Source: Fistulifera solaris
Taxonomy: Eukaryota
Length of the DNA: 64,000 bases
Assembly: GCA_030295235.1 (NCBI GenBank)
Contig: AP026123.1
Span: forward strand, 1,922,001-1,986,000
Direction of reading: 5' to 3'
In this document: piece after piece, positions 24,060-38,899 of the stretch
How positions within the stretch are numbered: the first letter of the stretch is position 1
Layout of the letters: the number at the start of each line of letters is the position of its first letter
The notes under the pieces: generated by a model
Databases searched by the model: none
What the model was told of the DNA's origin: nothing
The model's input: the letters and a program-made list of their open reading frames with translations, nothing else
Translations under genes and position numbers: made by a program

Positions 24060-24465
24060 GATGTTCAAGTAAAGCTACAAAGAAAAAAGCAACGAAAGTA
24101 AAAAGACAATGGAAGCAAACTCTCACGACAAGAATTGCACCAAAGATTTGTGTTGTGTGCCTTTGCGTTGCTGCTGCTGCGGCCTCTCGTCGGAGCCGCT
24201 TCACGCAAATAACGCAGGGAAATTTTTTCGACTTTGCTGTGTCGCAGTTCCTTCCGACTATGGACTACGTAGTATCTCATAGAGTGTACTTGGCGGTGTC
24301 GTGTAGATGCCGTCATGTTCAGGAACCAAATTCACACTCGTGACTCATTGAGAAATCCGCGTGCTTCGGTCTGCTTCGTGCATTTCATTGCAGGTCAAGG
24401 CGCAGTATTTGAACCATTATCAACAAACTATCCATACAAACAAATATAATTTAGCCGGTCGAAGA

Positions 24466-25200
24466 ATGAATTCTATCGGACAACAGCTCGAAAGCTACTT
24501 AGCCAGCGGCAATCAAGAAGAAGCCAAGACGCTGCTCAATCAGGTCAAACTCGCTCTCCTCACGCAGCCTCTCGATGTGAATGAACGAGCGCAAGCAGTG
24601 GCGGCGCTCGAAATCGGTGTATTATTAGCCATTCAAGCGGAAGATCTCGACTTGTTTGGCAGAACGGTGGCTTTGATTCAACCCTACTACTCAAAAGACG
24701 GCCCGACAACGCCGCGACGATTGCTTGTCATCGGATTGCATCTTATGCATCTGCTCGTCGAAAATCGTCTTAGTGAGTTCCATTCACAGCTGGAGCTTTT
24801 GACGGAAGAAGAGGCGGCTACACCGTTTATTAGCTTTCCCGTGGGTCTCGAACGGCAGTTGATGGTGGGAATTTACGATGAAATTTTGGCCGTGACGGCA
24901 CCAGACGCTTCGTATCAAATCTTTCTCGATTTGACGGTACAGACGGTGCGAGATGCCATCGCCGACTGCATGGAAGTCTCGTACGAGTCACTTACGACGA
25001 AACAAGCTGCGGAAATTATGAAATTCGACTCGACACAAGAACTCGTTGATTACGTTCAAGAATCGAGGGACGACTGGATCTTGCAAGGCGACGTCCTGAC
25101 ATTCCAACCCGTAGCGTCTTCCGGAGCACAAGATATTCCTTCTATGGAGTGGATCGAGCAATCGCTCACGTACGCTACAGAAATGGAACGCATTGTTTAA
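24466..25200 (+). CDS. RPN12: 26S proteasome lid subunit RPN12/PSMD8
   Basis: GLHLMHLLVENRLSEFHSQLELL, LERQLMVG.Y, YATEMERIV. Confidence 0.93.
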   Translation: MNSIGQQLESYLASGNQEEAKTLLNQVKLALLTQPLDVNERAQAVAALEIGVLLAIQAEDLDLFGRTVALIQPYYSKDGPTTPRRLLVIGLHLMHLLVENRLSEFHSQLELLTEEEAATPFISFPVGLERQLMVGIYDEILAVTAPDASYQIFLDLTVQTVRDAIADCMEVSYESLTTKQAAEIMKFDSTQELVDYVQESRDDWILQGDVLTFQPVASSGAQDIPSMEWIEQSLTYATEMERIV

Positions 25201-25289
25201 AAAGTAATTTCTATAGTAACTCATCTTTCTTGGCGTTTTAAGCAAATTGACGCCTGCTGTTCATGAATGCAACAAATGTACATGTGGTT

Positions 25290-26085
25290 TTACTTGTCTG
25301 ATCGGCCACAAAATACTTCGGTTGTAAAAATCACTGGTGATGAAACGGTCACACTCAGCGGGATGCCGTTTGGTTCGTTTATTTCCTGCGCGATGCGATT
25401 CGAGGTCGAGACCATACCGTTGAATGAAGATGGATAGTCGGTCAGATTCCACTCGAAACCAGTTAGCGTCATAGACTCACATGGTGCTCCGAGTGGAATG
25501 ATGCCGCACGTTTGCCCCTCACCAACATGAATTGTAGTGTCTCCTGACAAGGGTGGTAACGCTAACTCGATATGATTTTCAACATGAGCTGGAAGTAGAA
25601 ACGCCATAGTATAATCGTCGTACAGCCAAAGAGATTGCAGCTTCGGTTCCTCTGCCCACTGATACAATCGGCTCATCGAAGCCATGACTTGATCGAACCG
25701 TCCACCAAATGCCCCGAAAACACAGCACTGACTACATTCATAATCATTCACCGCTGCTAAAAGGGCCTTTTCTAAATCATTCTTGTCCTGATCATAAAAT
25801 TTTCGAATGGTCACACCCATCTTCTCGTAATGCTCTCGCGTTTCAGATGTCAAGGAATCCAAATCCCCGACAACCAAATCGGGTGTCCACTGGGGCTGTG
25901 CAGCACGCAAGCGATTGGCTCCTCCATCGGCACAGATGCGTACTTGAGCTGAATTCCATAACTGTGTGAACAAAGGACTCGGCTCGTCGCCGAGGGGGGC
26001 TGTTTAGGATGATGAGGGCTCGTTTGTGCGCCGAAGCAAGTAAAGGACTTTTGTGATAAACAATCGGGCGTTCATTCGTCGACAT
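25290..26085 (-). CDS. TPK1: Thiamine pyrophosphokinase (frameshift in the C-run near 25995)
   Basis: ALIILN, CADGGAN, GDLDS, DQD.NDLEKAL, GGRFDQ, CG.IP.G, STSN all intact. Confidence 0.93.
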
Positions 26086-27595
26086 GATAGTAGCTGTATC
26101 CTTTCTCGAACGAGTGAACGGTTGGGAAGTCAAAGACGAGAACTCGACGTGAGCGGATTCGGATTCTTCTCGAACCCTTTCAAAGCAATGGGTATGAGAG
26201 AACCCACCTGCTATAAGTTTCGAATATCTTCTTGGGATTTTTGCAAGGAAGTAATAACTCTGTTTCTCGATCGAAACAAATGTTTGTCGGCTTTCTTGCG
26301 CAATTGCCCTTTTAATTTTTTGCAAGAAAAAGTTAAACTAATTATTTAATTCCTAATTTTCCTAAAATGCGGATGCATTTTGACACTCAAGTGAATTTTC
26401 CACTGGTTTTTCTCTTTTGTCACATTTCTTTCAGAAAATTCGATTTCTGAATCACTGTACCACAGTATTGCCCTTTTAATTGGTTTGAGATACTATAAGG
26501 CCAAGGCTGCTAGAGAAGTGTCTGCTTTCAACCGTTCTCGATATTCCTGTATGCGCAGTTGCTGTACAAATCTAAGCAGTGCGACATAGATGGACAAAAC
26601 AACTTTCGACAAGGACCATTCACCGTGTAATTATCGCGTTAAATTGGTTGCCCTTTGTTCGTCATGATTGTCATGAAAGCATGTTCTTCTTCCTATTGAG
26701 CACCGGAAGTCTCTTTTATTGTCTTTTGTGAAGCTTAAGTGGTAAGGGGTAAGGAGTCATTTCTTAACAAATAGTAGTCAAGCGAAGATGGGCACTGAAA
26801 CGAAGCCGTCCTTGAAAAGCAACTTAGGCGTGTGGTGACTTTCAAATTAAATTTGATCATTACTCTTACACACGTCGTTTTACAGAAGCTATGACATATT
26901 GAATTGAATGTAAACTTTTTGTCGATTTACAACTGGGTAGAAGCCGAGGCCATGGACTAGCAGGAGGGCATTTTGAGAAAGCCTCGAGACGATGCTTAGA
27001 TATTGCCGTGGGTCCTTATTGGCCAACGATGTTGCTTTAGACGTTTGCACGTCTAGGATTTTGGAAAGAAATCCGAATCGGGGCGCATAATGAGTCGGTA
27101 AGTATTCGACCAGCTCGACGAAACTGAACCGTCGTTCGGGTGGATGCTTCTTTCTCATGGGCATCTTTTTCTCGGTAGATCTTGAGAGCATTGTGTCTAA
27201 TTTGTATTCACTTGTCTTTCTGCTCCTACACTGTAGCATCGCCACCGGAACGTACATGGCTGTGAAATTTATTGCATCTGGTAAACGGAAACACAGAACT
27301 TTGCGAGCAATGAACAAAACCATATTCAAGCTCCTTCCTTAACTATTAGGCACTGTAAAGCGCCGCACACCTTCTCATTCTGAATTCGAGAAAGCTGCAC
27401 TGCTAAAGTAGCGTGTAACAGCTGTCTTCGCCATATTTTCATCGGCAAAGCCGTTTATCGTTTTTATATTTGAGATCAAATGGACGTGAAACTAGATCAT
27501 CGGTGTTACTACTGGACTTATATAAATTTATATAGACAGATGAACGACGCAAAAGTCTATTTAGACAGAGGTACATGATCCTCCGCATCGCGACC

Positions 27596-29204
27596 TTATA
27601 CAGACGAATCGTCATTCTTGCTGCCGCTGTCCATTTGGTTCGGCGTGACAATTCGCTTCGGTCGCTTTGGCGGGAAATCACATTTCTCGGTATTCGCTGT
27701 TGCACGCGCGAAAGTTCGGTTTATCGTTGCTTTGCCTGCGGCGCGGTCCAAAGCAAGCTTCTTCTTCGAACGACGCCACCTTCGGATTCTTCGCTTTTGC
27801 AGTGCGATTGCTTTCTCTCTTCGAACGCTCCTTTCTATCGATCGCGTTGACGGTTCCATATCTTCGTTTTCTGATCTTGCCCTCTTTTTGCCTTCCATGT
27901 CAACGACAAATGTCTCCAAGTTTACTTCTGGCGTGTCATCCTTTTCACCGTCGTCGCAATGCCCCCAGAAACGACAAAAGTCAATGCCATCCAGTTGTTC
28001 TAGAGATGCGAATCCCTCACCAGAGTGATCAACCTTGCGTTCTTTTACCTCCACTGACGTTACGGTGCTAGCACCAGCATCGAAATTTAAGATGCCCTCA
28101 AAAGTCTCGCTCTCTTGTGCCCAAGAAACTGCTGATTCCGTCTCCGCGCTTCCTTTTGATGCTACACCTTTGAATAAACCTTTTCTGGATGGTGAACATA
28201 CTTCCGTACGAGCTCGAAGTGGATTTAGCAACCGCACGGATTTGTCTTCCGCAAGTTGACGTTGGTCCATGAGAGACGGCTGGTCAACAAACCGCTGGCT
28301 ATTAGTCTTTCCTCTCCGGGGTGTGCCCGTTTGGTCAAAACTGCCTTTACCCTCCGAAATTAATTCGTTGTTCGTGTTGCGCTCCTTTTCAGCGATTGTG
28401 GAGCTTCGTGTTTTCATTTTGCAAGCTGATTCGGACGATGATAGAGAATTCGTAGCATGGCGTTTTTGCGCGCAGCAGACTGTGTAGACCATACAAAACC
28501 TATTTCATTCAGTTGCTCCTCTCTGTCGGCTCTCATCTTGTTCTGTCTCTTCACTTGTCGTTGTCGCCTCATCCAATCGTACAGGTCTTTGTCTTTCGAT
28601 TGTTTGACATCCATGTGCCCATTTTCCAATTTGTAGGTAACAAGTCGCTGGTAATATTCATCCCAATCGTCGCGAACATCCCAGACAAATCCTATCTGAT
28701 CCATCAGCTCCTTCCTGTTGCTCAACAATTTTCCATTTCTCTTCTTATATCGTTGTTTGGTGATCCATTCGCACAACTCGTTATCGTCGTTAGCCGTGAC
28801 CATCGTGTGCCCCTGAGCCTTTCTGAAAACAAGGAGCCGCTGGTACATGTGGTTCCAAGCCTTATCGTATTTGCTTTCTTTTTGGTAATATTACGAGTAT
28901 TGGCGATTGGTGAACACCAGTCGAAGGATAAATCATTCAAAAGAGCTTCGCGATCTCGGCGCAGGTTGCCGGCACGTTGAGAGGATTGTTGCGTGGTAAC
29001 CCAAGTGTGCAATGACTCGTGGACGTCAACATTGGGGACATTACAATGCCCGTTCGCCTTGTGAAACACAGTAAGCTTTTTGTACATCTTCATCCAAATT
29101 TTGTCGTCACGAGACGTCGTTTCGTGCCGAACTTCAAGCACATCACCATTGTTCTCAGGTGCTGCAAACGACGATTCATCCGAAGTATAGTCTAGTAAAT
29201 CCAT
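27596..29204 (-). CDS. HA-domain protein copy 1 (3 HA repeats, degenerate Tudor-like segment, basic tail); frameshifts about 28866 and 28468
   Basis: Repeats of W...Y..L..F....GH..V......L..W...QR......L...R...L..IGF.W across ORFs 28722, 28414 and 27596. Confidence 0.8.
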
Positions 29205-30049
29205 TTTGAAGCTGATAAACAAGAAAGAATTGATTGTGCAAGGCGTTGTAACGCATGTTGCGGAAGAACGCCGCTGCAGCGGGCGGCTTGCCGCTTGTTC
29301 CCGCTCATCGCATGGACATCGACTGATTTTCTCTCGCACTACTTTCAACGTGAGAGTACAAGTACCGGATGCACATTTTCTCGGTCATCGCATTAGAACG
29401 CTTCGCCGACGTCATCAATCTAAGGTCGCAATAAGTCGCGAATATCATATTACCACATCACGGCATCCCAATGGGGAAAAATCAAACTCTCAGAATCCGT
29501 TAGGAAGGAGATGAACCCAATTGTACTTGCAGCAGCTTCGTATAGCAAGTTCTCAAATTTCCGTCCTACTGTCTCGGATAACGCGTGGCATGACTTTACA
29601 ATCTTCTTAAGCGCGCTCTCGTGAAGTAGACCTAGCGGATAATAAAAGGAGAACAAGAAACTCTCGTTTGCTCACATGATTCATTTCGTTGTCGTTCTTT
29701 ATCCGTAGATGCGTCTGTCTTTCCTCCCTGATTTGGTTATTCTGAAGACAAGTTTGCTTTAAACGCTTGCGAGGTTCGCATTATGACAAGTAGAACTGCT
29801 CGAATGCGATTGGCTTATGAAATCATCGGCGACTTTTCTTTGCCGAGGTTTGGAACTGAAATTTAGTTGAGTGCTCGACGTCGTTCATTACAGACCCTTC
29901 AACTTATCAGAAACAAATACTCCGGAGTATCAGGTTAACCGATCGACTCATCACACGGATCTTGCACTGATGAATGCGCCACAGTAGATTAAGTGGTTAT
30001 CAGATTTTATTCAATACCTTCAGTGTCATAGGTATCTTAGGGCGCTCCA

Positions 30050-30430
30050 AATATTGTGATTCTGCACGTTTGCCCCTCTGTCATACGCTTTGTAGAGGTA
30101 GACAATTCGCTTCAATTTCGCGACATGAGATGGAAGTGGAAAAGACTTGACCCATCGTCGTACAGCCATGCGATTCGTAGAGGTACTGCTAATTCGCTTC
30201 GATTTTGCGACATGAGCTGGAAGTGGAAAAGCCTTGGCCCATCGTCGTACAGCCATAAAAACTGCAACTTCGGTTCCTCCGCCCAATGTTACGACCGGCT
30301 CGTCCATGCCATAACTTGATCTAGCCGTCCTCCGCATGCTCAGAAAATCTGCACTCAATAAACATTCTTGTTCTGATCGTATAATCGTCAAATAATGGTC
30401 ACACCATCGTCTCATAATGCTCGAGTACCA
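30050..30430 (-). pseudogene. Degenerate TPK fragment with an internal ~87-bp duplication
   Basis: Nucleotide matches to TPK1 (ACATGAGCTGGAAGT, CTTCGGTTCCTC, GCCAT.ACTTGAT, CCATCGTCTC.TAATGCTCG). Confidence 0.75.
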
Positions 30431-30589
30431 TCAGCACTTTGTATAGCATCTTATTTCCGCCCCACTCGGAGAAAGCTTCAAACAATTCTAAGTCTTCTAG
30501 ACAGGATCTTTTGAATTGGCGAAATTGCATTTGAAAACAGGACAATTTGCGGGTGCAACTCGTTTTCTCCTCCTTTAAAGCTTACGCGA

Positions 30590-31260
30590 TTCCTCCTTGG
30601 TTGATTGCCAGAAAGTAGAAAATGTTCGTAACGCTGCCAGCAATCGCGCACTCGATACAGCTACCGCATTGATACCTGGCAGATTGACGAACGTCTCTAA
30701 CCATCAAATTAGATTTTACAACCGAATGAGAAACAGTTGTCGTTTCATTGTTTACCCTCAAATAGAAGCATCACCCTTCTTGCTTCTCCCACCAAACCAG
30801 CTCTCGGCTCTCGTATTGACGAACTGACCGCAGCAGGGTATAGCATAAAAAAATAAGCAGCACCAAGGGTTCCATTTCAACAGCAAGTCTTGAACCGGAC
30901 ACTCAAATCTGGTGAGACAAAGTGAACCATATAGCAACAATCTAGTAAACCAGAAACCCTCTTTTGGTTCCGATAAATGAACGACAGCGCTCTCAATAAA
31001 ACTTGAACGCCGATCTTAAACTATGAACCGGATGCCGTGTGCTTACCAGCTAGATCGAACGAAGTGTCGGTCATGATCGCCGACTGATCCAACATCACCG
31101 ATGATGCAACACCGTGCGATCTTCCATAGAGCTATAACGAACACACTTGGGCAAGGTTCAATAATGCTGGTGTTTACGAACGCATCTCCAAAAGTGTGAT
31201 CGATAACAAACGCTAACAACCTCATCAAATTAATCTGCGTTCGCCATCGGTCCACCATCT
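30590..31260 (-). pseudogene. Decayed remnant of an unknown, probably membrane-protein gene (array unit 1)
   Basis: Homologous to 35410-36180 and 39400-40193 (CCGQFVNTRA.SWF.GRS, FVNLPGI); broken frames. Confidence 0.5.
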
Positions 31261-31799
31261 CTTTTTTCGTTTATTGGAACGTTGTCGCGCTCGCCGAGGA
31301 TCCGGCTTTTCGGGGGGATTGAATCATGACCATTAGGGACCGACATATAGTAGCTTCATTACTGTACTCAGCCTTGGGCAGTGCGACGTTCTTCAACGAA
31401 AACAAGGTTTCGACAAAAACACTTTCGCGACAAAATGGTCGCTTTTTGCTCGTTAACATTGTTATACATAGTATGTCTTCTTTTTACCGAGCACGGCAAG
31501 GCTCTTTGATTGTCTATTGTGAAGCTTATATGGTGATGGCGAAGGGGAAAAGCACATCTTTGTAATTTGATTTACAAACCAAGATCGGCACTATAACGAA
31601 GACGAATGTGAAAGCAACAGACGGTTTTTATATTGACTGAAACTCGATTAAATCCGCTTTCATTTGTCTATCCGATGATTAGACACAAATGGATGGATCG
31701 TGTTTAACTGTCAGTCTCAAAATTATTTTTGACCAGAAGGTGATTTGAGACCTTCCATCAATTTGATAGGAAATGTACACTGGTCACCCCCATGACATG

Positions 31800-32185
31800 A
31801 TCGCGTGTACTATGAGCCAACCAGCGAAGATCTTGACTTCCGTCTGCAAGAACAATGAATTTTACAAAATGTGATATTCAAAGACGTCCCATAACGCTGC
31901 CGCGATTTCTCGTCATCGATTGCATCTGATGCATGTGCTCGCCAATTATTTTTGTAGTCACAACGAGTCATTTACGCGAAACCGGCTGCGAGAACTATAA
32001 AGCTGATTCAATACAAGAACTGACTAAAGGAGATTACAGGTACTGGCCGAGGAATGACTGGATCTTGCAGGGCGACGTCCTGACATGTAAACCATGGCGC
32101 CTCCTAGGAGACACGGCATTCCTTCTATGGAGCGGACCGACCGTTTTGCTCACATCTTGCTACAGCAATAGAGCATATTGTGTCA
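31800..32185 (+). pseudogene. Deleted RPN12 duplicate
   Basis: Collinear blocks match RPN12, e.g. GATTGCATCT.ATGCAT.TGCTCG and GACTGGATCTTGCA.GGCGACGTCCTGACAT (DWILQGDVLT). Confidence 0.85.
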
Positions 32186-32287
32186 ATGTAAGAAAACTAA
32201 AATATATACGGGGTAAATTATCTTTCTTGGCGATTCAAGCCTCTAGACATGCCCTTCTCGTAAATGCAACACGTATACACATGCTGG

Positions 32288-34526
32288 CTACTCTTCTGAT
32301 TTGCCACAAAAGACTTCCGCTTTGAAAATCACAGGTGAAGAAACGGTCACACTGAGTGGGATCCCGTTCGGAACGTTTACTTCTTGTGCGATTCGATTCG
32401 AAAATGGAACGATATGATGAAGCGAAAAAGAAGAGTAGGTCGGGTTCCGTTCAAAACCAGTTAGTGTCATGGATTCACACGGTGCTCCGAGTGGTATGAT
32501 GCCGCACGTTTGCCCCTCACCAACATGTTTCGAAGAGTCTCCTGACAATGGCGGTAACGCTAATTCAATACGATTCTCAACATGAGCTGGAACTAGAAAT
32601 GCCATGGTGGAGTTGTCGTATAGCCAAAGCGATTGCAGTTTCGGTTCCTCTGCCCAATGATACAACCGGCTCATCGAAGCCATGACTTGATCAAACCCGC
32701 CACTTAATGCCCCGAATACACAGCACTGACTGCAGTCATAATCATACACCGCTGCCAGAAGGGCCATTTCTACATCATCCTTGCTGCTCCGAACAACAAC
32801 CTCTTGAATAGCCACACCCAATGTCTTGTAATGTTCTCGTGTTTTGGATGTCAACGAACGCAAATCACTGACAATCACGTCGGGCTTCCAAAGCGGATGA
32901 GCAACACGCATCCGATTGGCTCCACCACCGACACAGATGCGAACCCGAGCCGAGTTCCACAAACGTTCGAACAAAGGGCTCGATTCGTCACCGAGGCCGA
33001 GGGGACTGTCATGGATGACGAGAGCTCGTTTGTTGTCTGAGTCAAGAAGGGGACTTCTATGAACAACAAATGGGCGTTCGTCCTGTGCCACCATTTTCAG
33101 ACGATCATGACGAAGGAACATTTGACGCTTGATGGGAAGCAACAAACCCGATTTCCTTTCCTGGTCCAGGAAAGATGACTGATCCTTCCCCATTGCTTGA
33201 CTATCTTCTTCCGTGTGCTTGACTTGGTTGGTGTGCTCGACTTGGTCCGGTGAAACATTTCGCGTGGACTGCTTTGGCGGTGTATTACTCTCTTCGGTCA
33301 TCGCTTTTGCACGCGAAGAAGATCGATTTGCTTGAGTCTCCACGCGATCGTTGGACACATTCTTCTGCGATTTTGCAGTCGACTCTACAACCGGTACCAC
33401 GTTCGATTTCTGCTCTTGTGCAGTTGGATTCGCTTCACTGCTGTCAAGCGCTTGTTTCTTCACTCGATTGGTCGACAACGAATCTTCTTTCGTTGCACGC
33501 TTTCGCTTGTTTGAAGTCTCGCTCTCTTGTTTCTCGATAATTGGCGACTCCGCCTCAAGGCTTCCTGTTGACTCTTCGTCTGACGCTGATCGCTTAGTGG
33601 ACCGCGCATGGGCTGTTGCATCCATTTCGATTAGATCAGGCAACGGCTTGGATTTGTCCTTCGGGCGCTCACGACGTTCAATGACGTTTTGGACCTCCAA
33701 AGGCTCGCTATCGTGCTTGTCAGAGATTACCGACTCGGTCTCGGCGCTTCCTGTTGATTCTTCTTCTGAGACCGAACCCTTCCCGGATCGCGAAACATCT
33801 GAAGTATCCTCTGCAGGTGCATCTTTAAATCGCGCCACTTTGTCTTGCGCGAGTTCACGGCGTTCCGAAAGAGAGCTCTGTTCGACTTTGCTCTTGGCAC
33901 TTCGTGTTTTGGTCTTGCGAGCTGGTTCAGATGATGAAAGAGACTCCGTATCTTTGGACTTTGAGGGCTCCACAGACTTGACAACCCACACAAACCCTAT
34001 TGCTTTCAATCGCTCCTCTCTTTTGGCTTTCAATGTCTTTTTCTTTCTTCTGTTGTCGTTGCTTTTTGATCCAATTGTAGAGCTTCTTGTATTCTTCGAC
34101 GTTAGCCGGAACCATCATGTGCTTATTTTCCTTGATGAAGGCAACGAGTTCATTATACATTATCTTCCAACGCTTGTCGTTATGGGTTTCTTCTTCGCCA
34201 CCACTAGGCTCGTCATTGGGCTTCGCGCTTGGCTTGGTGCTAGGTTTACTCCAATTCGAATCCAGCTCATTCAATAGGGTTTCACGATTGCGGGGTAGCT
34301 TGCCCGCAATTTGCAACGCTTGTTGTTGACTGGTCATCCACCAGAAAAGCAGTTCGTGTTCATCAACGTTGGGGATATGACCGTGCGCTTTGTGAAAAGC
34401 TTGGAGTTCTTGAAACTTCTCCATCCAAAGTTCGTCGTCGTGGGTCATTTCCTTTCGATTTTCCAACACATCTCCTTCGCTCTCAAGAGACACAGACGAT
34501 GCTTTTTTGTTTGATTTGCCACTCAT
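32288..34526 (-). CDS. Chimeric ORF: 2 HA domains, S/E/K-rich linker and divergent thiamine pyrophosphokinase domain (one frameshift about 34035)
   Basis: ORF 32288-34033 runs from an HA C-terminus (REERLKAIGFVW) without a stop into a full TPK paralogue. Confidence 0.75.
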
Positions 34527-34979
34527 TCTGTATTATCGATACCAGGTAATCGAAAATGAATTCAGTTTCGTTTGTGAGATGATTGTGCGTTGTGAGCCAT
34601 GCTGCGGAAGGATGGCGCTGCAGCGGCGGCTTGTTGCTTATTCCCGCTCCGGTCATGCATGCAATTGCAACGGTCATCCCCGATTGCGTTCGTGGCACCG
34701 TACTTCGAAGAATAGAGTGTGGGTACCGGATAAAGATTCTTTCAGTCGTGTCACGCTTTGTATTTCTCACCATCATTAATCTAAGGTTCCAAAACATCCA
34801 GTTATAACGACGCGGCATCCCCATTGAAAGAAACATGCTCCCGTTTGTTATCAGCAATCAAGTCAGAGAGAATTTGAACTAATTCGTACTTTCAACAAGT
34901 CTGCGTAGCAATATTATCCGTCTTTTCGTTTTACCACGTGCTGCGCTTCGTAGAGTCTCCCAAAATTGAAGGTTTTGCT

Positions 34980-35240
34980 AACTCGTTTCAAAATTGCGAC
35001 ATGAGCTGGAAGTGGAAAAGCCATGGTAAATCGTCGTTCAGCAAAACGAAATGCAGCTTCGGTTCCTCCGCCCATAATACGAACTGCTCGTCGATGCCAT
35101 AACTTGATTGTGCCGTTCACCGAATGCTCAATAAATACATTATTGATTGACGCCACTACCAGCAGGGTCATTTCTAAACCATTGATCGTAAAACAATCAG
35201 TTGTCACACCCATCGTCTCGTAATGCTCGAGTACCCGCAA
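34980..35240 (-). pseudogene. Degenerate TPK fragment (array unit 2)
   Basis: EHYETMGVT and TMAFPLPAHV match TPK1 EHYEKMGVT and TMAFLLPAHV. Confidence 0.75.
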
Positions 35241-35409
35241 CAAATTCGTATAGCAGTATTATTTCTTCTTTCCGGTACACTCGGAGAACGCGTAATGCGA
35301 TTCTCTAAATATCTTTGGCACGATATTGTAAATTGACGAAATGTTCAATGAGAACACGACAATTAAATTTGCGGGTGCAACTCATTCCCCCTCAGTTCAT
35401 GTTTATGCC

Positions 35410-36180
35410 ATTCCTCCTCGGTTGATTGTTAGAGAGTACGTTCGCACCAATCGCACAAGTCGGTACAGCTTTGATACCTGGTAGGTTGACGAATGCTTGT
35501 TGCCCTTCAGTAAGATATGACAACCAAGTGAGGAATATTTGTCGTTCCATTATTTACCCTCGAGTACAACCAACAGCCTTTTCACTTCTCCCATCAAACC
35601 AGCTCTTGGCTCTTGTATTGACGAATTGACCACAGCAGGGTGTAGCATACCAGGTAAAAATGAGCAGCGCCAAGTTGTTCCATTTAACAGAGTTCTTGAA
35701 ACTTGAACCGGACAATCGAATCTGATGCGACGAAGTGGACCATATCGCAAAGTATTGAATCAAAAGCCCTATTCTGGATCCGATAAATGAAGAGACAATG
35801 CTCTCAGAAAGTATTCGACCATGAATATCGAACGTGAAATATGCGTTAGCTGCGATATCGGGCATAAGGATTCCGTGTGATTGCATTTGCATGAAAGGAG
35901 TTACCACGATCGCCGATTGCCCCAACACCACCGATGCTGCAACAATGTACGATTTTCCCCTATAGTGTTTTTAATATTGTGGCGAGGATCTGCGAACGTA
36001 TCTGCACAATATGCCAATGATGGACGATCACAACATTATCCAAACCAAATAACTGCGTTCGCGGCCATCTCCCCATCGTCATCGTATTCTTTATTCTTTG
36101 TCGGCTTTTTCGGCATGGATGCAGTTCTACCATGATCTGTGGTTAGAGCATTACTGGCTTACCGGTATCCGAAGTAGTTG
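35410..36180 (-). pseudogene. Decayed unknown membrane-protein gene remnant (array unit 2)
   Basis: VLGQSAIVV.PFMQMQSHG..IAANAYF.F.IHG.IL.ESIVSS shared with unit 3. Confidence 0.5.
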
Positions 36181-36948
36181 TGAGCATAAATTTTTGAGAA
36201 CCGAAAAGATATTCCCCGCTTCTGGAACGGATGACGTGTTGTTGCTTTATTTTGCTTTGCGCATCAAGGCCTTGATCCTTGAGCAGTGCGACATCCATCA
36301 ACGAAACGAGATGTTTCGACAAAAAGCATTCACCGTGTAATTATCGCCACAAAATGGTCGTCTTTTGCTAGTCAACATTGTAATTAACAGTATAACTTCT
36401 TTCAATTCAGCATGGCAAGGCTCTTTTCTAGTATATCGTGAAGCTTATAAGGTGAAGGCTGAAGAGGGGTCATATCTTATATTTTGAAATAGACAAGGGA
36501 AGCTTGGCACTTTGGCGAACGGTGGTGGGGCTTGGTTCGATACGGTGACGGTCGATCTTGGTGGCGATCCGCGCCGTAGATGGGAATCTTGTGAGCGTGG
36601 TTCCAGGTCAGCCATTCGGATGTCTCGGGGGCAGCCAGTCTGAATCGGATTCTAGTGGCTTATATCGCGAGAGTACGACCTTACAACGTGGATAGGACTT
36701 ATAATAAAATTTAAAAGTTTTTTATCTACAACCTTTCCAAAAAAACAATTTTTCGTTGTTGATTCTGATATTTTATCATATGTGGTGAGTCAAAGAAGAG
36801 CGATTGGCAACTTATGGTTTGCTGTAATTGCCAAATGACGGTCCACAATCTTGCGTGAAAAAACTTGCTCTACTTCCACCATACTGAGAGGAGTCGATGC
36901 TGATTTCATCAGGCAAGGGATCGAATCTCGGAATCGGTAAGTGCACGC

Positions 36949-38899
36949 CTACCCCTTGAATCTGAGCTGGAACGCCCGTGATAGATTTGTACACATGATC
37001 AAATGTTGAGTTTCTTTTTTGCTGCATCCACAAATTTCAAATGCAGGAGCCTCATCTGGACGGTTTTGTGGGCCTTCCCAGCAAGAAATGAGCGAACCAA
37101 TAGGACAACTTTTATGCGGAAAACTTGCCGCCCAATGGCGACCTGTCGACTGTGCCGCGGACGTGATTGTTGACTCAAAATCGACCATGCGCTCACCCTC
37201 CTGGTCTTCCTCACCGCAACTCTTTTCCTGTGGCTCGACTTCAGTTCCACCTTTGCGGAGAAAGGGCTTACGCGTTACGTTTTCCCATAATTCTGGGTCA
37301 TTTTCCTTGTCTTCGTGAGACTTAGTATCGATCCGCGCCACGTAACCTACTTCAATCATGTGCTCAACTTGACTATCATTCTCGGACTTGCCCGGTGTGA
37401 CTTTTTGCATTGATCGTTTCGGCACTTTACTATCTTCTTTGGTCTTTGCTTTTGCACGCGTAAAAAACCGCGTTTTCATTGCTTTACTTTCGACGCAGTC
37501 GGTAACGACTCTCTTCTTTGATTGAACACTCGACACTACTACCGAGTCCACTGTAGCAGCCTTTGTTTCTGTATCTGTGCTCTTACACTTCGTTTTTTTC
37601 GATAGTTTTGTCGGCGTTGAGTCATCTCTCGTCGGTTTCGCCCTTTTTTTGCGTTCCGCTTTGACCAAGAATCTCGTCACGTCTGCTTCAACCAAATGCT
37701 CTTTATCGCCGTCGTCGTATTGAATTAGATATCCCCAGAAACGACGACCATCATCATCCTCAAATTGCTCATATGATTCGATTGCTCCGCCAAAAAGCTG
37801 AAATTTGCCTTTTTCTACCTCGAATGGCTTTTCGATCCGAGTACCAACAGCTAAGTTTTGTACTTCCAAAGTCTCGCTTTCTTGTGGCCAAGTAATCACT
37901 GATTCCCTTTCGGTGCTTCCTGTTGGTAAAGATGACTCTTGAGACCAGACGAATCCAATTTCATACAATTTCTCCTCTCTGTCGCTCGACAACTTTCCCT
38001 TTTTCTGCAAAGATCGCTGTTTGCTAATCCACGTGTACCACTTTTTGTCATCGCTAGCGTTGACATTCAAATGTCCATTCTTTTCTTTAAAGGCAACAAG
38101 TCGTTGATATTTTTCATCCCAAGCTTCATCGGGTGTGAGCTTAACAGCCCAGGCAAATCCTATCTCATTCAATCGCTCCTCTCTGTCGCTTGACAATTTC
38201 CCCTTTTTCTGCAAAGATCGCTGTTTGCTAATCCACTTGTACCACTTTTTGTCATCGCTAGCTTTGACATTCAAATGTCCATTCTTTTCTTTAAAGGCAA
38301 CAAGTCGTTGATATTTTTCATCCCAAACTTCATCGGGTGTGAGCTTAACAGCCCAAGTAAATCCTATCTCATTCAATCGCTCCTCTCTGTCGCTTGACAA
38401 CTTTCTCTTTTTCTGCGATAATCGTTGTTCGCCAATCCACTTGTACAGTTCTTTGTCATCGTCAGCCGTAACATTCATGTCTCCGCGCGTAATTTTGAAG
38501 GCCACGAGTCGCTTGAACACTACATCCCAAGCATCAACGTCTGTACTTTGCACTTCGGTGCTGGGTCTGTCGACAGCCTTGACATCTGGTTTGGCGCTAG
38601 GCGTACTCCATTTAAACCCCAATTCGGTCAAAAGTTCTTCGTGATCCTGGCGCAGGTTGCCCGCGCGATGGATGGATCGTTGAGTAGCAACCCACGAGAG
38701 TAACGGTTTGTGATGTTCGTCGTTCGGGACTTTGCAATCGCCTTGCACATCGTGAACTGCTTTGAGTTGTCGGTACTTCTCCATCCAGATTCTATCCTCC
38801 GGTGTTGTTGTTTGATTACGACTTTCGAGCACATCCCCTTCGTTCTCAGGTGCTGCGAACGACGATTCGTCTGAAGTGTAATCTTCTAGTAAATCCATT
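36949..38899 (-). CDS. HA-domain protein copy 3 (4 HA repeats plus Tudor-like domain)
   Basis: Uninterrupted ORF from MDLLEDYTS; four HA motifs; VGTRIEKPF...FGG.I.SY....Y.I.YDDGDKE. Confidence 0.85.
37972..38405. repeat. 204-bp (68-codon) near-identical tandem duplication of one HA module
   Basis: TATCTCATTCAATCGCTCC occurs at 38161 and 38365 (offset 204); the protein repeats differ at only a few residues. Confidence 0.92.

Follow-up and report, generated by a model that had tools for sequence, protein, structure and literature searches.

A catalytically altered thiamine pyrophosphokinase copy in frame with an HA-domain gene of the diatom Fistulifera solaris

On the minus strand of a 64,000-nucleotide stretch of the Fistulifera solaris genome (assembly GCA_030295235.1, contig AP026123.1, positions 1,922,001 to 1,986,000; hereafter the window), a gene for a protein with HA domains (HA2) likely reads through a long linker into a full-length copy of thiamine pyrophosphokinase (TPK2) in which residues for catalysis and for thiamine contact are replaced. 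The lineage-specific HA2-linker-TPK2 fusion ORF spans 32288..34526 (-) and comprises 745 codons plus a stop if an A5 run within it is read as A4. Our best explanation is that TPK2 is a pseudoenzyme module which an HA-domain protein kept for a long time and can now do without. We give this reading, according to which the fusion would be translated as one protein and its TPK part would dimerise, a probability of about 0.55.

The proposed course of events starts with an old tandem duplication of a unit consisting of the RPN12 3′ end, a TPK and an HA gene in a Fistulifera-type raphid diatom. The second unit would then have lost the stop of its HA gene together with the TPK promoter and the DNA between the two genes, such that the HA frame would now continue along the gene's disordered tail, across about 140 nt that once flanked the TPK on its 5′ side, and on into the TPK copy. 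The TPK part presumably lost its catalytic and thiamine-holding residues, and so became a pseudoenzyme, before two fusion copies diverged. Its fold, above all the central core, would have stayed under purifying selection, and TPK2 would have been retained at the C-terminal end of an HA-domain protein as a domain without catalytic function. The likeliest role is that of a dimerising module, forming either homodimers or heterodimers with other TPK-fold proteins.

As assembled, a single frame is open from 34114 to 32288 (-), i.e. 608 codons plus a stop, and has no stops, whereas the two alternative frames contain 22 and 29. It begins within the second HA domain (...REERLKAIGFVW) and continues through the linker into TPK2, while the first 163 codons of HA2 (from 34526) lie one frame off, the stop of that frame being at 33927. 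The preliminary description had the HA gene reading into the TPK without a stop and the TPK2 frame still open; both hold for 34114-32288, but not for the 163 N-terminal codons. The ORF at 33927-34526 (-) matches the Pfam HA profile above cut-off (70.9 bits) in two stretches, so that HA2 has two HA domains and not three. HA domain 1 lies at 34242..34439 (-), approximately residues 30-95, with edges that are approximate and were drawn by eye from the repeat alignment. HA domain 2, at 33992..34178 (-), is split by the window's frameshift and covers profile positions 2-53 of 64 in the frame-0 ORF of the window. At the other end, a 445-aa ORF at 32288-33625 (-) contains TPK_catalytic (63.4 bits; Pfam cut-off 30.7) and TPK_B1_binding (26.5 bits; cut-off 22). 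TPK2 itself occupies 32291..33094 (-), followed by the stop codon at 32288-32290; Pfam and a structural model support a full-length TPK fold, and the motif comparison given below shows the replaced residues.

The frame break lies at the A5 homopolymer at 34038..34042 (-). P0161, an uninterrupted, intron-free ORF of a second public assembly that lies on the same contig as P0002 and P0160, reads ...KKEKTLKAKREERL... across this run and contains HA domain 2 over profile positions 2-64 of 64 (residues 117-178; HA score 78.8 bits). Removal of one base at about 34042-34037 from the window reproduces 317 of the 319 residues of P0161. In addition, a genomic contig of the same strain, X1 rec4 (32716-34648), differs from the window in no other letter and is exactly one letter shorter. 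Since this gap is known by count and not by position, A4 in the window's strain is a matter of inference, with which the contig is compatible. Because P0161 reads through the A-run and X1 rec4 is one letter shorter, the A5 run is likely an assembly error, and this strain likely carries the 745-codon ORF. An intron across the A-run was ruled out, the two halves of HA domain 2 abutting with the same spacing as in the repeats of HA3. A search of the protein collection with the 608-aa ORF as query returned no ORF of 745 aa.

The neighbouring genes supply the unfused counterparts. TPK1, the canonical, parent-type copy at 25290..26085 (-), has one C too many in a C6 run at 25999-25994; removal of one C gives 263 of the 264 residues of the intact ORF P0159, and TPK1 is also intact in the sister ORF P0002, which starts at TTG. 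TPK1, the reference chosen in the preliminary description, is itself frameshifted in the window. HA1, an unfused HA2 paralogue at 27596..29204 (-) with two frame breaks, has its own stop, followed by 1.5 kb and then TPK1; contig X1 rec3 (26395-32352) is 2 letters longer than the window. The third HA gene seen in the 64-kb window, HA3 at 36949..38898 (-), is intact and encodes a long-tailed paralogue of 649 aa. Two further TPK copies in the array, at 30001-30405 and 34949-35148, are relics (38-54% amino-acid identity). The RPN12 (PSMD8-type) copy is a 3′ fragment at 31984..32094 (+), identified by tblastn as residues 181-215 (57% identity). It had been described as collapsed, and indeed only these residues remain; however, it may never have been complete, because the DNA homology between the units starts only at 25064, inside RPN12. 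Literature searches for helicase-associated domains in diatoms and for PF03457 returned no relevant paper.

The six motif changes from which an altered TPK had been proposed are present as written, namely: CADGGAN to CVGGGAN; GDLDS to SDLRS; DQDKNDLEK to SSKDDVEM; GGRFDQ to SGGFDQ; GFEW to GFER; and STSN to PFSN. Together with the domains and the frame, they uphold the description of a TPK paralogue with altered catalytic residues in an HA chimera. We compared these positions with 154 other TPKs. The Asp of the CAD motif is Gly in TPK2 (151 Asp and 3 gaps in the others), the Gly of GDLDS is lost (153 Gly, 1 gap), and the second Asp of the same motif is Arg (Asp in 154/154). In DQDxxDxxK, the catalytic Lys is replaced by Met (Lys in 154/154) and the gate Gln by Ser (Gln in 146/154), while the Arg of GGRFDQ is Gly (Arg in 152/154). 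The thiamine-stacking Trp is Arg (151 Trp and 3 Tyr among the 154). In STSN, the first Ser, present in 154/154, is Pro, and the Thr is Phe. TPK2 retains the first Asp of GDLDS, the Asp of ...ND..., and the second Ser and the Asn of STSN. None of the 154 other TPKs compared has lost the residues that are replaced in TPK2. According to PMC2515308, Mg2+ is bound by four Asp, thiamine stacks against an aromatic residue, catalysis depends on the Lys, and the active site spans both monomers; of the Mg2+-binding Asp (D78, D113, D115 and D142 in C. albicans), the first and third are replaced in TPK2. Because the motif changes fall on residues that are invariant in 151-154 of 154 TPKs, TPK2 is almost certainly catalytically dead, as judged from its sequence.

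The gene had been called young, a view that does not survive comparison with its relatives. TPK2 and TPK1, which lies 7 kb away, share 72% amino-acid identity at a dS of 0.68, and nucleotide identity is 77% over 1040 columns. Furthermore, a diverged F. solaris protein, GAX09274.1, has the same junction: it is 52% identical over 564 columns that include the linker-TPK junction, and 71% identical in the TPK part. Six inactivating changes are common to TPK2 and GAX09274.1, namely D>G, G>S, Q>S, D>S, N>D and K>M, and the tree (TPK1, TPK1h, (TPK2, P0001)) has support of 100/99. After the shared inactivation, both fusion copies gained about 0.2 changes per site each, estimated from protein branch lengths. 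Four indels separate the two copies in or next to the TPK part; all are in frame, and both frames are open. On these alignments the fusion is old, with the junction and the inactivating changes predating the split of the two surviving copies. DNA of the second copy was also sought by a profile scan of metagenome contigs with alignment A1, in which 235 stretches matched and none was confirmed. We rejected fso:g67 (‘thiamine pyrophosphokinase’) and fso:g7918 as a homoeologue pair, since the header of Table S5 of PMC5935921 presents two independent lists.

The linker consists of 295 Ser/Glu/Lys-rich residues (S+T 23%, K+R 18%, D+E 18%, FWY 1%). Most of it, at 33236..33979 (-), derives from the C-terminal tail of the HA gene itself: the 298-aa tail of HA1 aligns colinearly, over its residues 46-288, with residues 53-293 of the frame-1 ORF (27% identity, E 7e-18). 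The part at 33095..33235 (-) is former TPK 5′ flank that is now coding, as seen by tblastn and in alignment A1; ORF residues 131-208 match 26196-25996, upstream of the TPK1 ATG (tblastn, 36% identity). The 295 codons are free of in-frame stops, whereas the other frames hold 6 and 15, and none of 20000 shuffled versions remains open; the linker is also open and alignable in GAX09274.1. These features weigh against the idea that the locus gives two products, with the HA2 tail merely running on and the TPK2 pseudoenzyme made separately, from a promoter of its own inside the gene and with 33121 or 33094 as its ATG. In-frame ATGs do occur at 33625, 33121 and 33094, the last being the TPK part's own ATG given in the preliminary description, and they would permit a separate TPK2 product. 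The Met of ...RQMFLRH... is kept in GAX09274.1, whereas the ancestral TPK start Met is not (M>T), and the shortened HA2 of a second genotype (see below) is still an ORF with both HA domains. However, the loss of the ancestral start codon in GAX09274.1 tells against a separate product as well, and the two-product account is strained because it offers little reason for an open linker, including a formerly non-coding flank, if the sequence before an internal ATG is untranslated. We consider two products possible but rather unlikely.

Transcript-like contigs were also compared with the window. X4 contig rec25 covers 25193-25941 and has a 24-T run as a loose end before 25193, and X3 shows a GT..AG joint at 27096>27236; both features are RNA-like. 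The depth of X3 is low in the bins 31755-33305 and 33823-34339. Neither X3 nor X4 covers 33306-33822, and X4 has no cover over 31755-36407, a lack of cover that is uninformative.

Omega for TPK2 was obtained from outgroup-polarised counts under a clock assumption, and the branches of the second copy were estimated from protein branch lengths. Pairwise dN/dS between TPK2 and TPK1 is 0.22; for the TPK2 lineage, omega comes to about 0.36 (Fisher p 7e-4). It falls to 0.09 (p 3e-5) in the central 80 codons, where dS is 0.55 and only 3 replacements on this lineage compare with 21.5 synonymous differences. The near-identical central stretch noted in the preliminary description does differ mostly at synonymous positions (Sd 21.5, Nd 8.5), and the pairwise and central ratios agree with its expectation that substitutions are not placed at random. 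Identity at the three codon positions is 83/88/66%. By comparison, omega is about 0.56 in the catalytic domain and 0.43 in the Trp-STSN region, neither being significantly below 1. Gene conversion was rejected as the cause of the conserved centre, dS there being 0.55 as against 0.65-0.74 in the flanks. The constraint on TPK2 is a mosaic. Purifying selection after the loss of catalysis would fit the lineage and central omega values and the two open copies, but against it stand the broken ORF of the second genotype and the lack of protection of invariant and interface sites. The columns changed in the TPK2-type lineages number 13/29 among invariant, 17/47 among highly conserved, 14/61 among moderately conserved and 26/66 among poorly conserved positions, such that family-invariant columns are changed at least as often as variable ones.

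The second, near-identical genotype carries two frameshifts and 3 amino-acid changes relative to the window. An 11-nt deletion at 33560..33574 (-) ends the HA2 ORF at ...SDEGP followed by a stop (P0161; P0160/P0008), and a 7-nt tandem duplication at 32949..32957 (-), just before CVGGGAN, shifts the frame again. When the two edits were introduced into the window, 317/319 and 248/250 residues were reproduced, with a stop at 251; towards its C-terminal end, P0160/P0008 is read in the other frame of the window. In this genotype, the HA protein therefore ends mid-linker and TPK2 is out of frame. Because the 11-nt deletion and the 7-nt duplication lie in the ORF, there is no strong present-day constraint on the fusion, and the module is dispensable today.

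These lesions fit the view that TPK2 is a decaying relic, i.e. a functionless passenger at the 3′ end of HA2 whose low dN/dS stems mostly from an earlier period as an enzyme. The other TPK copies of the array are already relics, the invariant and interface sites of TPK2 are unprotected, and GAX09274.1 lacks 5 residues of a core helix. The profile scores of TPK2 are also halved: 63 bits compared with 84-124 in 50 longer canonical TPKs, with 26.5 compared with 40-80 bits for TPK_B1_binding in the same set, and a PDB E-value of 6.9e-16 compared with 1.9e-30. Passive decay nevertheless sits poorly with inactivating changes that are common to two copies, both of which stayed open through the divergence described above with all four indels in frame, and with the scarcity of replacements in the central 80 codons. 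Moreover, simulated neutral decay closes the ORF fast: under random substitution it stays open in 33/2000 runs at 5% per site and in 0/2000 at 10%. We therefore regard a mere relic as doubtful, and a module that was long kept and has only now become dispensable as the better account of the same data.

For the TPK2 domain, the AF2 model predicts a TPK fold (pLDDT 91.3, pTM 0.90). In a Foldseek search with this model, ranks 1-10 are all TPK structures, the best being mouse TPK (1ig3_A, E 2.5e-21, TM 0.77/0.81). A predicted heterodimer of TPK2 with the TPK1-type protein P0158 has an ipSAE of 0.78, compared with 0.00 for the best of 3 controls, and thus passes a mark that is reached by 51/78 solved complexes and 2/108 mismatched pairs; at least 88% of contacts recur between runs, and the partner's pLDDT is at least 84. 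This pass may stem from the likeness of the model to solved TPK homodimers. Preferential conservation of the interface was not found in TPK2, where 10/33 predicted interface residues are changed as against 55/200 elsewhere; in P0001, the changed interface residues number 13/33, including a 5-residue deletion in an interface helix. Since TPK active sites are built across the dimer, neither site would be functional in a TPK2-TPK1 pair. In a bolder form of the dimerisation idea, the dead TPK domain would have been selected as a poison or tether subunit, which would disable TPK1 in this way and carry it to nucleic acid bound by the HA domains. We regard this as improbable. If true, the fusion would be a genetically encoded and titratable means of restraining or localising the synthesis of thiamine diphosphate, kept in two diverged copies for longer than the divergence of TPK1 and TPK1h and now lost in some strains.

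That TPK2 is still an enzyme, or a sensor that binds thiamine or its diphosphate, is very improbable. The whole TPK fold is predicted with confidence, and the retained Asp, Ser and Asn residues listed above could be taken in its favour, but two of the four Mg2+-binding Asp as well as the Lys, Gln, Arg, Trp and first Ser are replaced, each of which is invariant or almost so in the 154 TPKs. The sensor role put forward in the preliminary description in particular found no specific support, since TPK2 has lost the Trp that stacks on thiamine as well as the first Ser of STSN. Finally, a misjoin or other assembly artefact behind the HA-TPK2 adjacency or the open frame might be suspected from the homopolymer indels at this locus (the TPK1 C6, the HA2 A5 and two in HA1) and from an X1 contig that joins 33234 to 34615, but it is extremely unlikely given the mismatch-free span of X1 rec4, the second-assembly ORFs P0161 (HA2 into linker) and P0160 (linker into TPK2), which are identical to the window apart from indels, and the same linker-TPK junction in GAX09274.1.

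Compared with TPK1/THI80 enzymes (PF04263 and PF04265; 1IG3, 2F17, 1IG0, 2HH9 and 9HJC), TPK2 has the same two domains and predicted fold but is fused behind an HA-domain protein and has lost active-site residues. An HA domain was found in 0 of the 51 TPK representatives of at least 340 aa that were scanned. HA domains (helicase-associated, PF03457) are described in databases as nucleic-acid binding. Like other HA repeat proteins, HA2 has more than one such domain and is paralogous to two long-tailed neighbours; the tails of HA1 and HA3 carry a short ...RFWG...DDG... motif that, by eye, HA2 lacks, and only HA2 continues into a TPK fold. The vitamin-B6 pseudoenzyme PDX1.2 is an example of a pseudoenzyme paralogue that partners its active relatives. 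TPK2 resembles it as a duplicate of a vitamin-cofactor enzyme in which catalytic residues are lost and the fold and oligomer scaffold are kept, with an active copy nearby; unlike PDX1.2, it is attached to an unrelated domain and disrupted in a second genotype, and its partnering is a prediction. The locus also resembles chimeric genes that arise when read-through or a deletion joins tandem neighbours: the two parents can be recognised and still lie side by side in the sister unit HA1...TPK1, the junction falls where the stop of the HA tail is expected, and former 5′ flank is now coding. In contrast to young chimeras of this kind, HA2-TPK2 is old, occurs in two diverged copies, and has a dead enzyme as its downstream parent.

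Provided that it is translated, the fusion would represent a pseudo-TPK; a literature search combining TPK and pseudoenzyme found no title on a TPK pseudoenzyme. The locus would also document how a tandem duplicate can escape decay through capture into the frame of a neighbour, with the unfused parents and decayed sisters still present within the same 15 kb. Such a gene is easily misread, since prokaryote-style ORF calls on the second assembly split it into ORFs of 319 aa and 246/250 aa. Thiamine metabolism matters in diatom ecology. GAX09274.1 bears the name ‘thiamine pyrophosphokinase’ though its catalytic residues are missing, and a tally of TPK enzymes that included it would put the TPK gene dosage of Fistulifera too high.

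The window is eukaryotic DNA, and related units are arrayed between its 24.4 and 39 kb marks. Unit 1 comprises a PSMD8-type RPN12 gene on the plus strand (24466-25200), followed on the minus strand by the canonical TPK1 (26085-25290) and the HA gene HA1 (29204-27596). Unit 2 has a plus-strand RPN12 3′ fragment (31984-32094) and a minus-strand HA gene, HA2, running into a second TPK copy, TPK2 (from 34526 to 32288). A further minus-strand paralogue, HA3 (38898-36949), is an intact ORF of 649 aa. Two minus-strand TPK relics (30405-30001 and 35148-34949; 38-54% amino-acid identity) complete the order, which in the 5′-to-3′ direction of the minus strand is HA3 then relic 35148-34949, and TPK2, relic 30405-30001, then HA1. 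The stretches flanking the relics (30181-30995 and 34970-35806) share 73% identity, which makes the array a higher-order repeat.

Smaller repeats also occur here. A 129-aa ORF at 30026-30415 contains an internal repeat (...AFPLPAHVAKSKRI... / ...SFPLPSHVAKLKRI...), segments 26575-26766, 31425-31528 and 36282-36479 are 74-76% alike, and the intergenic DNA holds a short repeated element at 26335-26424. In the bin 26068-26584, contig depth jumps to 79 in the genomic set X1 and to 140 in X2, and loose ends are abundant. At the RPN12 end, a contig of X4, which like X3 behaves as RNA, ends in a loose run of 24 T at 25193. It places polyadenylation of the minus-strand TPK1 mRNA ~97 nt past the TPK1 stop, within the final codons of the convergent RPN12. 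The first 41-43 letters of the RPN12 contigs of X3 and X4 have no match in the window upstream of 24463, and an X1 contig jumps from 24378 to 24463 near the RPN12 start; for both, a 5′ intron in RPN12 and a diverged second copy are candidate explanations.

The preliminary description had HA2 reading into TPK2 without a stop. This is so only downstream of an A5 run at 34042-34038, where the frame switches; upstream of it, the first 163 codons of HA2 (ATG at 34526) lie one frame off, and the assembled frame stops at 33927. From 34114 to 32288, 608 codons are open, while the alternative frames carry 22 and 29 stops. The start of this open frame lies in HA domain 2 (...TLKAKREERLKAIGFVW), and it proceeds through a 295-aa linker (S+T 23%, K+R 18%, D+E 18%, aromatic residues 1%), open in 0 of 20000 shuffles, into a full-length TPK copy. 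Pfam profiles recognize two HA stretches in HA2 (70.9 bits), and TPK_catalytic (63.4 bits) and TPK_B1_binding (26.5 bits) in the 445-aa ORF at 32288-33625.

The extra A at 34042-34038 appears to be an error of the window's assembly, as three observations suggest. P0161, a 319-aa ORF from the assembly of a second, near-identical genotype, reads ...KKEKTLKAKREERLKAIGFVW... uninterrupted across the A-run, and taking one base out of the window at 34042-34037 reproduces 317 of its 319 residues; it is to be read as an intron-free, prokaryote-style ORF call, because P0002, the TPK1 ORF of the same contig, begins at TTG. HA domain 2 spans profile positions 2-64 of 64 in P0161 versus 2-53 in the window's own ORF. 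Finally, the genomic contig X1 rec4 (32716-34648) shows 0 substituted letters and lacks exactly one letter of the window somewhere in that span. Other frames are broken as well. TPK1 is frameshifted in a C6 run (25999-25994), probably another homopolymer error of the assembly: removing one C yields 263 of the 264 residues of P0159, its intact counterpart in another assembly, and three contigs spanning the run are each one letter shorter than the window. HA1 is spread over three frames, with breaks after ...NITKKK... and ...IGFVWSTQ... that need two added bases; over 26395-32352, the same-strain genomic contig X1 rec3 exceeds the window by 2 letters, as a further pair of homopolymer errors in HA1 would explain.

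The origin of the fusion can be traced against unit 1. The HA1 tail, 298 aa long, aligns colinearly through its residues 46-288 with residues 53-293 of the open frame (27% identity, E 7e-18), and HA1 continues for ten residues beyond this homology before its stop. From ~33235, the frame is homologous to the 110 nt upstream of the TPK1 ATG (26196-26086) and then to TPK1 itself. The 1.5 kb between the HA1 stop and TPK1, which houses a spliced plus-strand transcript, is missing in unit 2; thus, unit 2 lost the stop of the HA gene as well as the intergenic DNA and the promoter of TPK, and the former 5′ flank turned coding. The transcript is represented by an X3 contig with a GT..AG joint at 27096-27236 (139 nt skipped), and its gene is without a counterpart between TPK2 and HA2. 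Separately, one genomic X1 contig joins 33234 to 34615, omitting 1380 nt. What is left out corresponds precisely to HA2, beginning 90 nt before its ATG and ending where the HA-tail homology ends. On its shorter side the joint has just 34 letters; a deletion variant, a paralogous locus and a graph artefact are all candidate explanations.

All six motif changes previously listed for TPK2 relative to TPK1 are present. We compared the affected positions with 154 other TPKs, namely five close diatom orthologues and 149 cluster representatives. In TPK2, the D of CADGGAN is Gly (D in 151, gap in 3), the G and second D of GDLDS are Ser (G in 153, gap in 1) and Arg (D in 154), the Gln of DQD is Ser (Q in 146/154), the Lys of LEK is Met (K in 154), the Arg of GGRFDQ is Gly (R in 152/154), the Trp of GFEW is Arg (W in 151, Y in 3) and the first Ser of STSN is Pro (S in 154). 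Loss of these invariant residues was found in 0 of the 154 compared TPKs, whose representatives derive from the best 150 of 4068 search matches. According to PMC2515308, four Asp of TPK coordinate Mg2+, an aromatic residue stacks thiamine, a Lys is important in catalysis and a Gln serves as gate, and the active site combines loops from one monomer with strands from the other. Judged by its residues, TPK2 is almost certainly dead as an enzyme. Its best sequence match to solved TPKs weakens from E 1.9e-30 for TPK1 to 6.9e-16. The TPK fold is confidently predicted to be held (pLDDT 91.3, pTM 0.90), and the ten best Foldseek matches of the model are all TPK structures (top 1ig3_A, E 2.5e-21, TM 0.77/0.81).

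The fusion had been taken for a young gene; it is old. TPK1 and TPK2 share 77% DNA identity (1040 columns) and 72% protein identity, with dS 0.68 and dN 0.15. Identities at the three codon positions are 83, 88 and 66%, the last similar to that of the intergenic segment of the two units (63%). The only named relative found, P0001 (GAX09274.1; F. solaris, 620 aa, annotated ‘thiamine pyrophosphokinase’), is 52% identical to the open frame over 564 columns that include the linker-TPK junction. With TPK2 it shares the changes D>G, G>S, Q>S, D>S, N>D and K>M; D>A, W>S, S>L and N>K are additional losses specific to P0001. When 30 TPKs are placed in a tree, the four of Fistulifera type group as one clade (100/99), in which TPK2 is sister to P0001 (100/99). 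The branches of the two canonical copies measure 0.05 and 0.03; the stem of the TPK2 type measures 0.18, and its tips 0.20 and 0.24. The canonical pair, TPK1 and P0158, is 92.4% identical and the dead pair 71.3%. Since F. solaris is described as allodiploid (PMC5935921), these may be two homoeologue pairs, P0158 probably being the product of the second genome copy. X1, X3 and X4 each have second contigs 3-9% off the window over RPN12 and TPK1 (24463-26074; e.g. 24/282 and 25/313 letters differ), which fits a second, diverged genome copy expressed in the same organism. The P0001 gene model opens with a second linker-segment copy (residues 1-123, 47% identical to frame residues 213-332) followed by ~90 unrelated residues, and lacks an HA domain; this N-terminal repeat stems from an internal duplication or else from an intron modelled wrongly.

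Constraint on TPK2 appears to be a mosaic, as estimated from its codons. Replacements were polarised by six canonical outgroup proteins, and synonymous change was taken to be equal in the two lineages; this gives TPK2 an omega of ~0.36 (p 7e-4 vs 1, Fisher) and TPK1 one of 0.07. The central 80 codons of TPK2 have omega 0.09 (3 replacements, dS 0.55, p 3e-5); for the catalytic domain (0.56) and the surroundings of Trp-STSN (0.43), the value is not significantly below 1. Under simulated random substitution, the ORF soon closed: it stayed open in 33/2000 trials at 5% per site and 0/2000 at 10%, and the four TPK2-P0001 indels in or beside the TPK part are all in frame. Across columns of falling conservation, the TPK2-type lineages have changed 13/29 (invariant), 17/47, 14/61 and 26/66; family-invariant columns have thus not been spared, a first point against claiming a strong function.

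When TPK2 was modelled in complex with P0158, the score was 0.78 (best of 3 controls 0.00), above a mark that 51/78 solved complexes and 2/108 mismatched pairs attained; the runs have 88% or more of their contacts in common, and the partner's pLDDT is 84 or higher. Because solved TPK homodimers exist, this pass may be mere likeness. As a second point against, predicted interface residues are no better kept than others (10/33 changed vs 55/200 elsewhere), and P0001 is missing five residues of the interface helix.

In the second genotype, P0161 ends at ...SDEGP* and the next ORF (P0160/P0008) begins in another frame, ending 30 residues past ...ERLWNS. Editing the window with an 11-nt deletion (~33574) and a 7-nt tandem duplication (~32950) reproduces 317/319 and 248/250 residues with the stops in place. 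This genotype is otherwise almost identical to the window, and its TPK1 (P0002) is intact. Contig X2 rec13 (32663-36563) is 3 letters and 23 gap letters off the window, room enough for both indels. With the locus broken there, at least one close genotype can dispense with the TPK2 module, which again weighs against a strong function.

The HA-linker-pseudoTPK fusion ORF is largely real and lineage-specific, and presumably translated as a fusion; an HA domain was found by domain scan in 0 of the 51 TPK representatives of at least 340 aa among the matches listed. Its TPK part is almost certainly catalytically dead, apparently long constrained in its core and now broken in a close genotype. At slightly better than even odds, we read the locus as an old fusion of this kind, whose presumably dead TPK with its constrained core would most likely act as a non-catalytic, probably dimerising, C-terminal domain.
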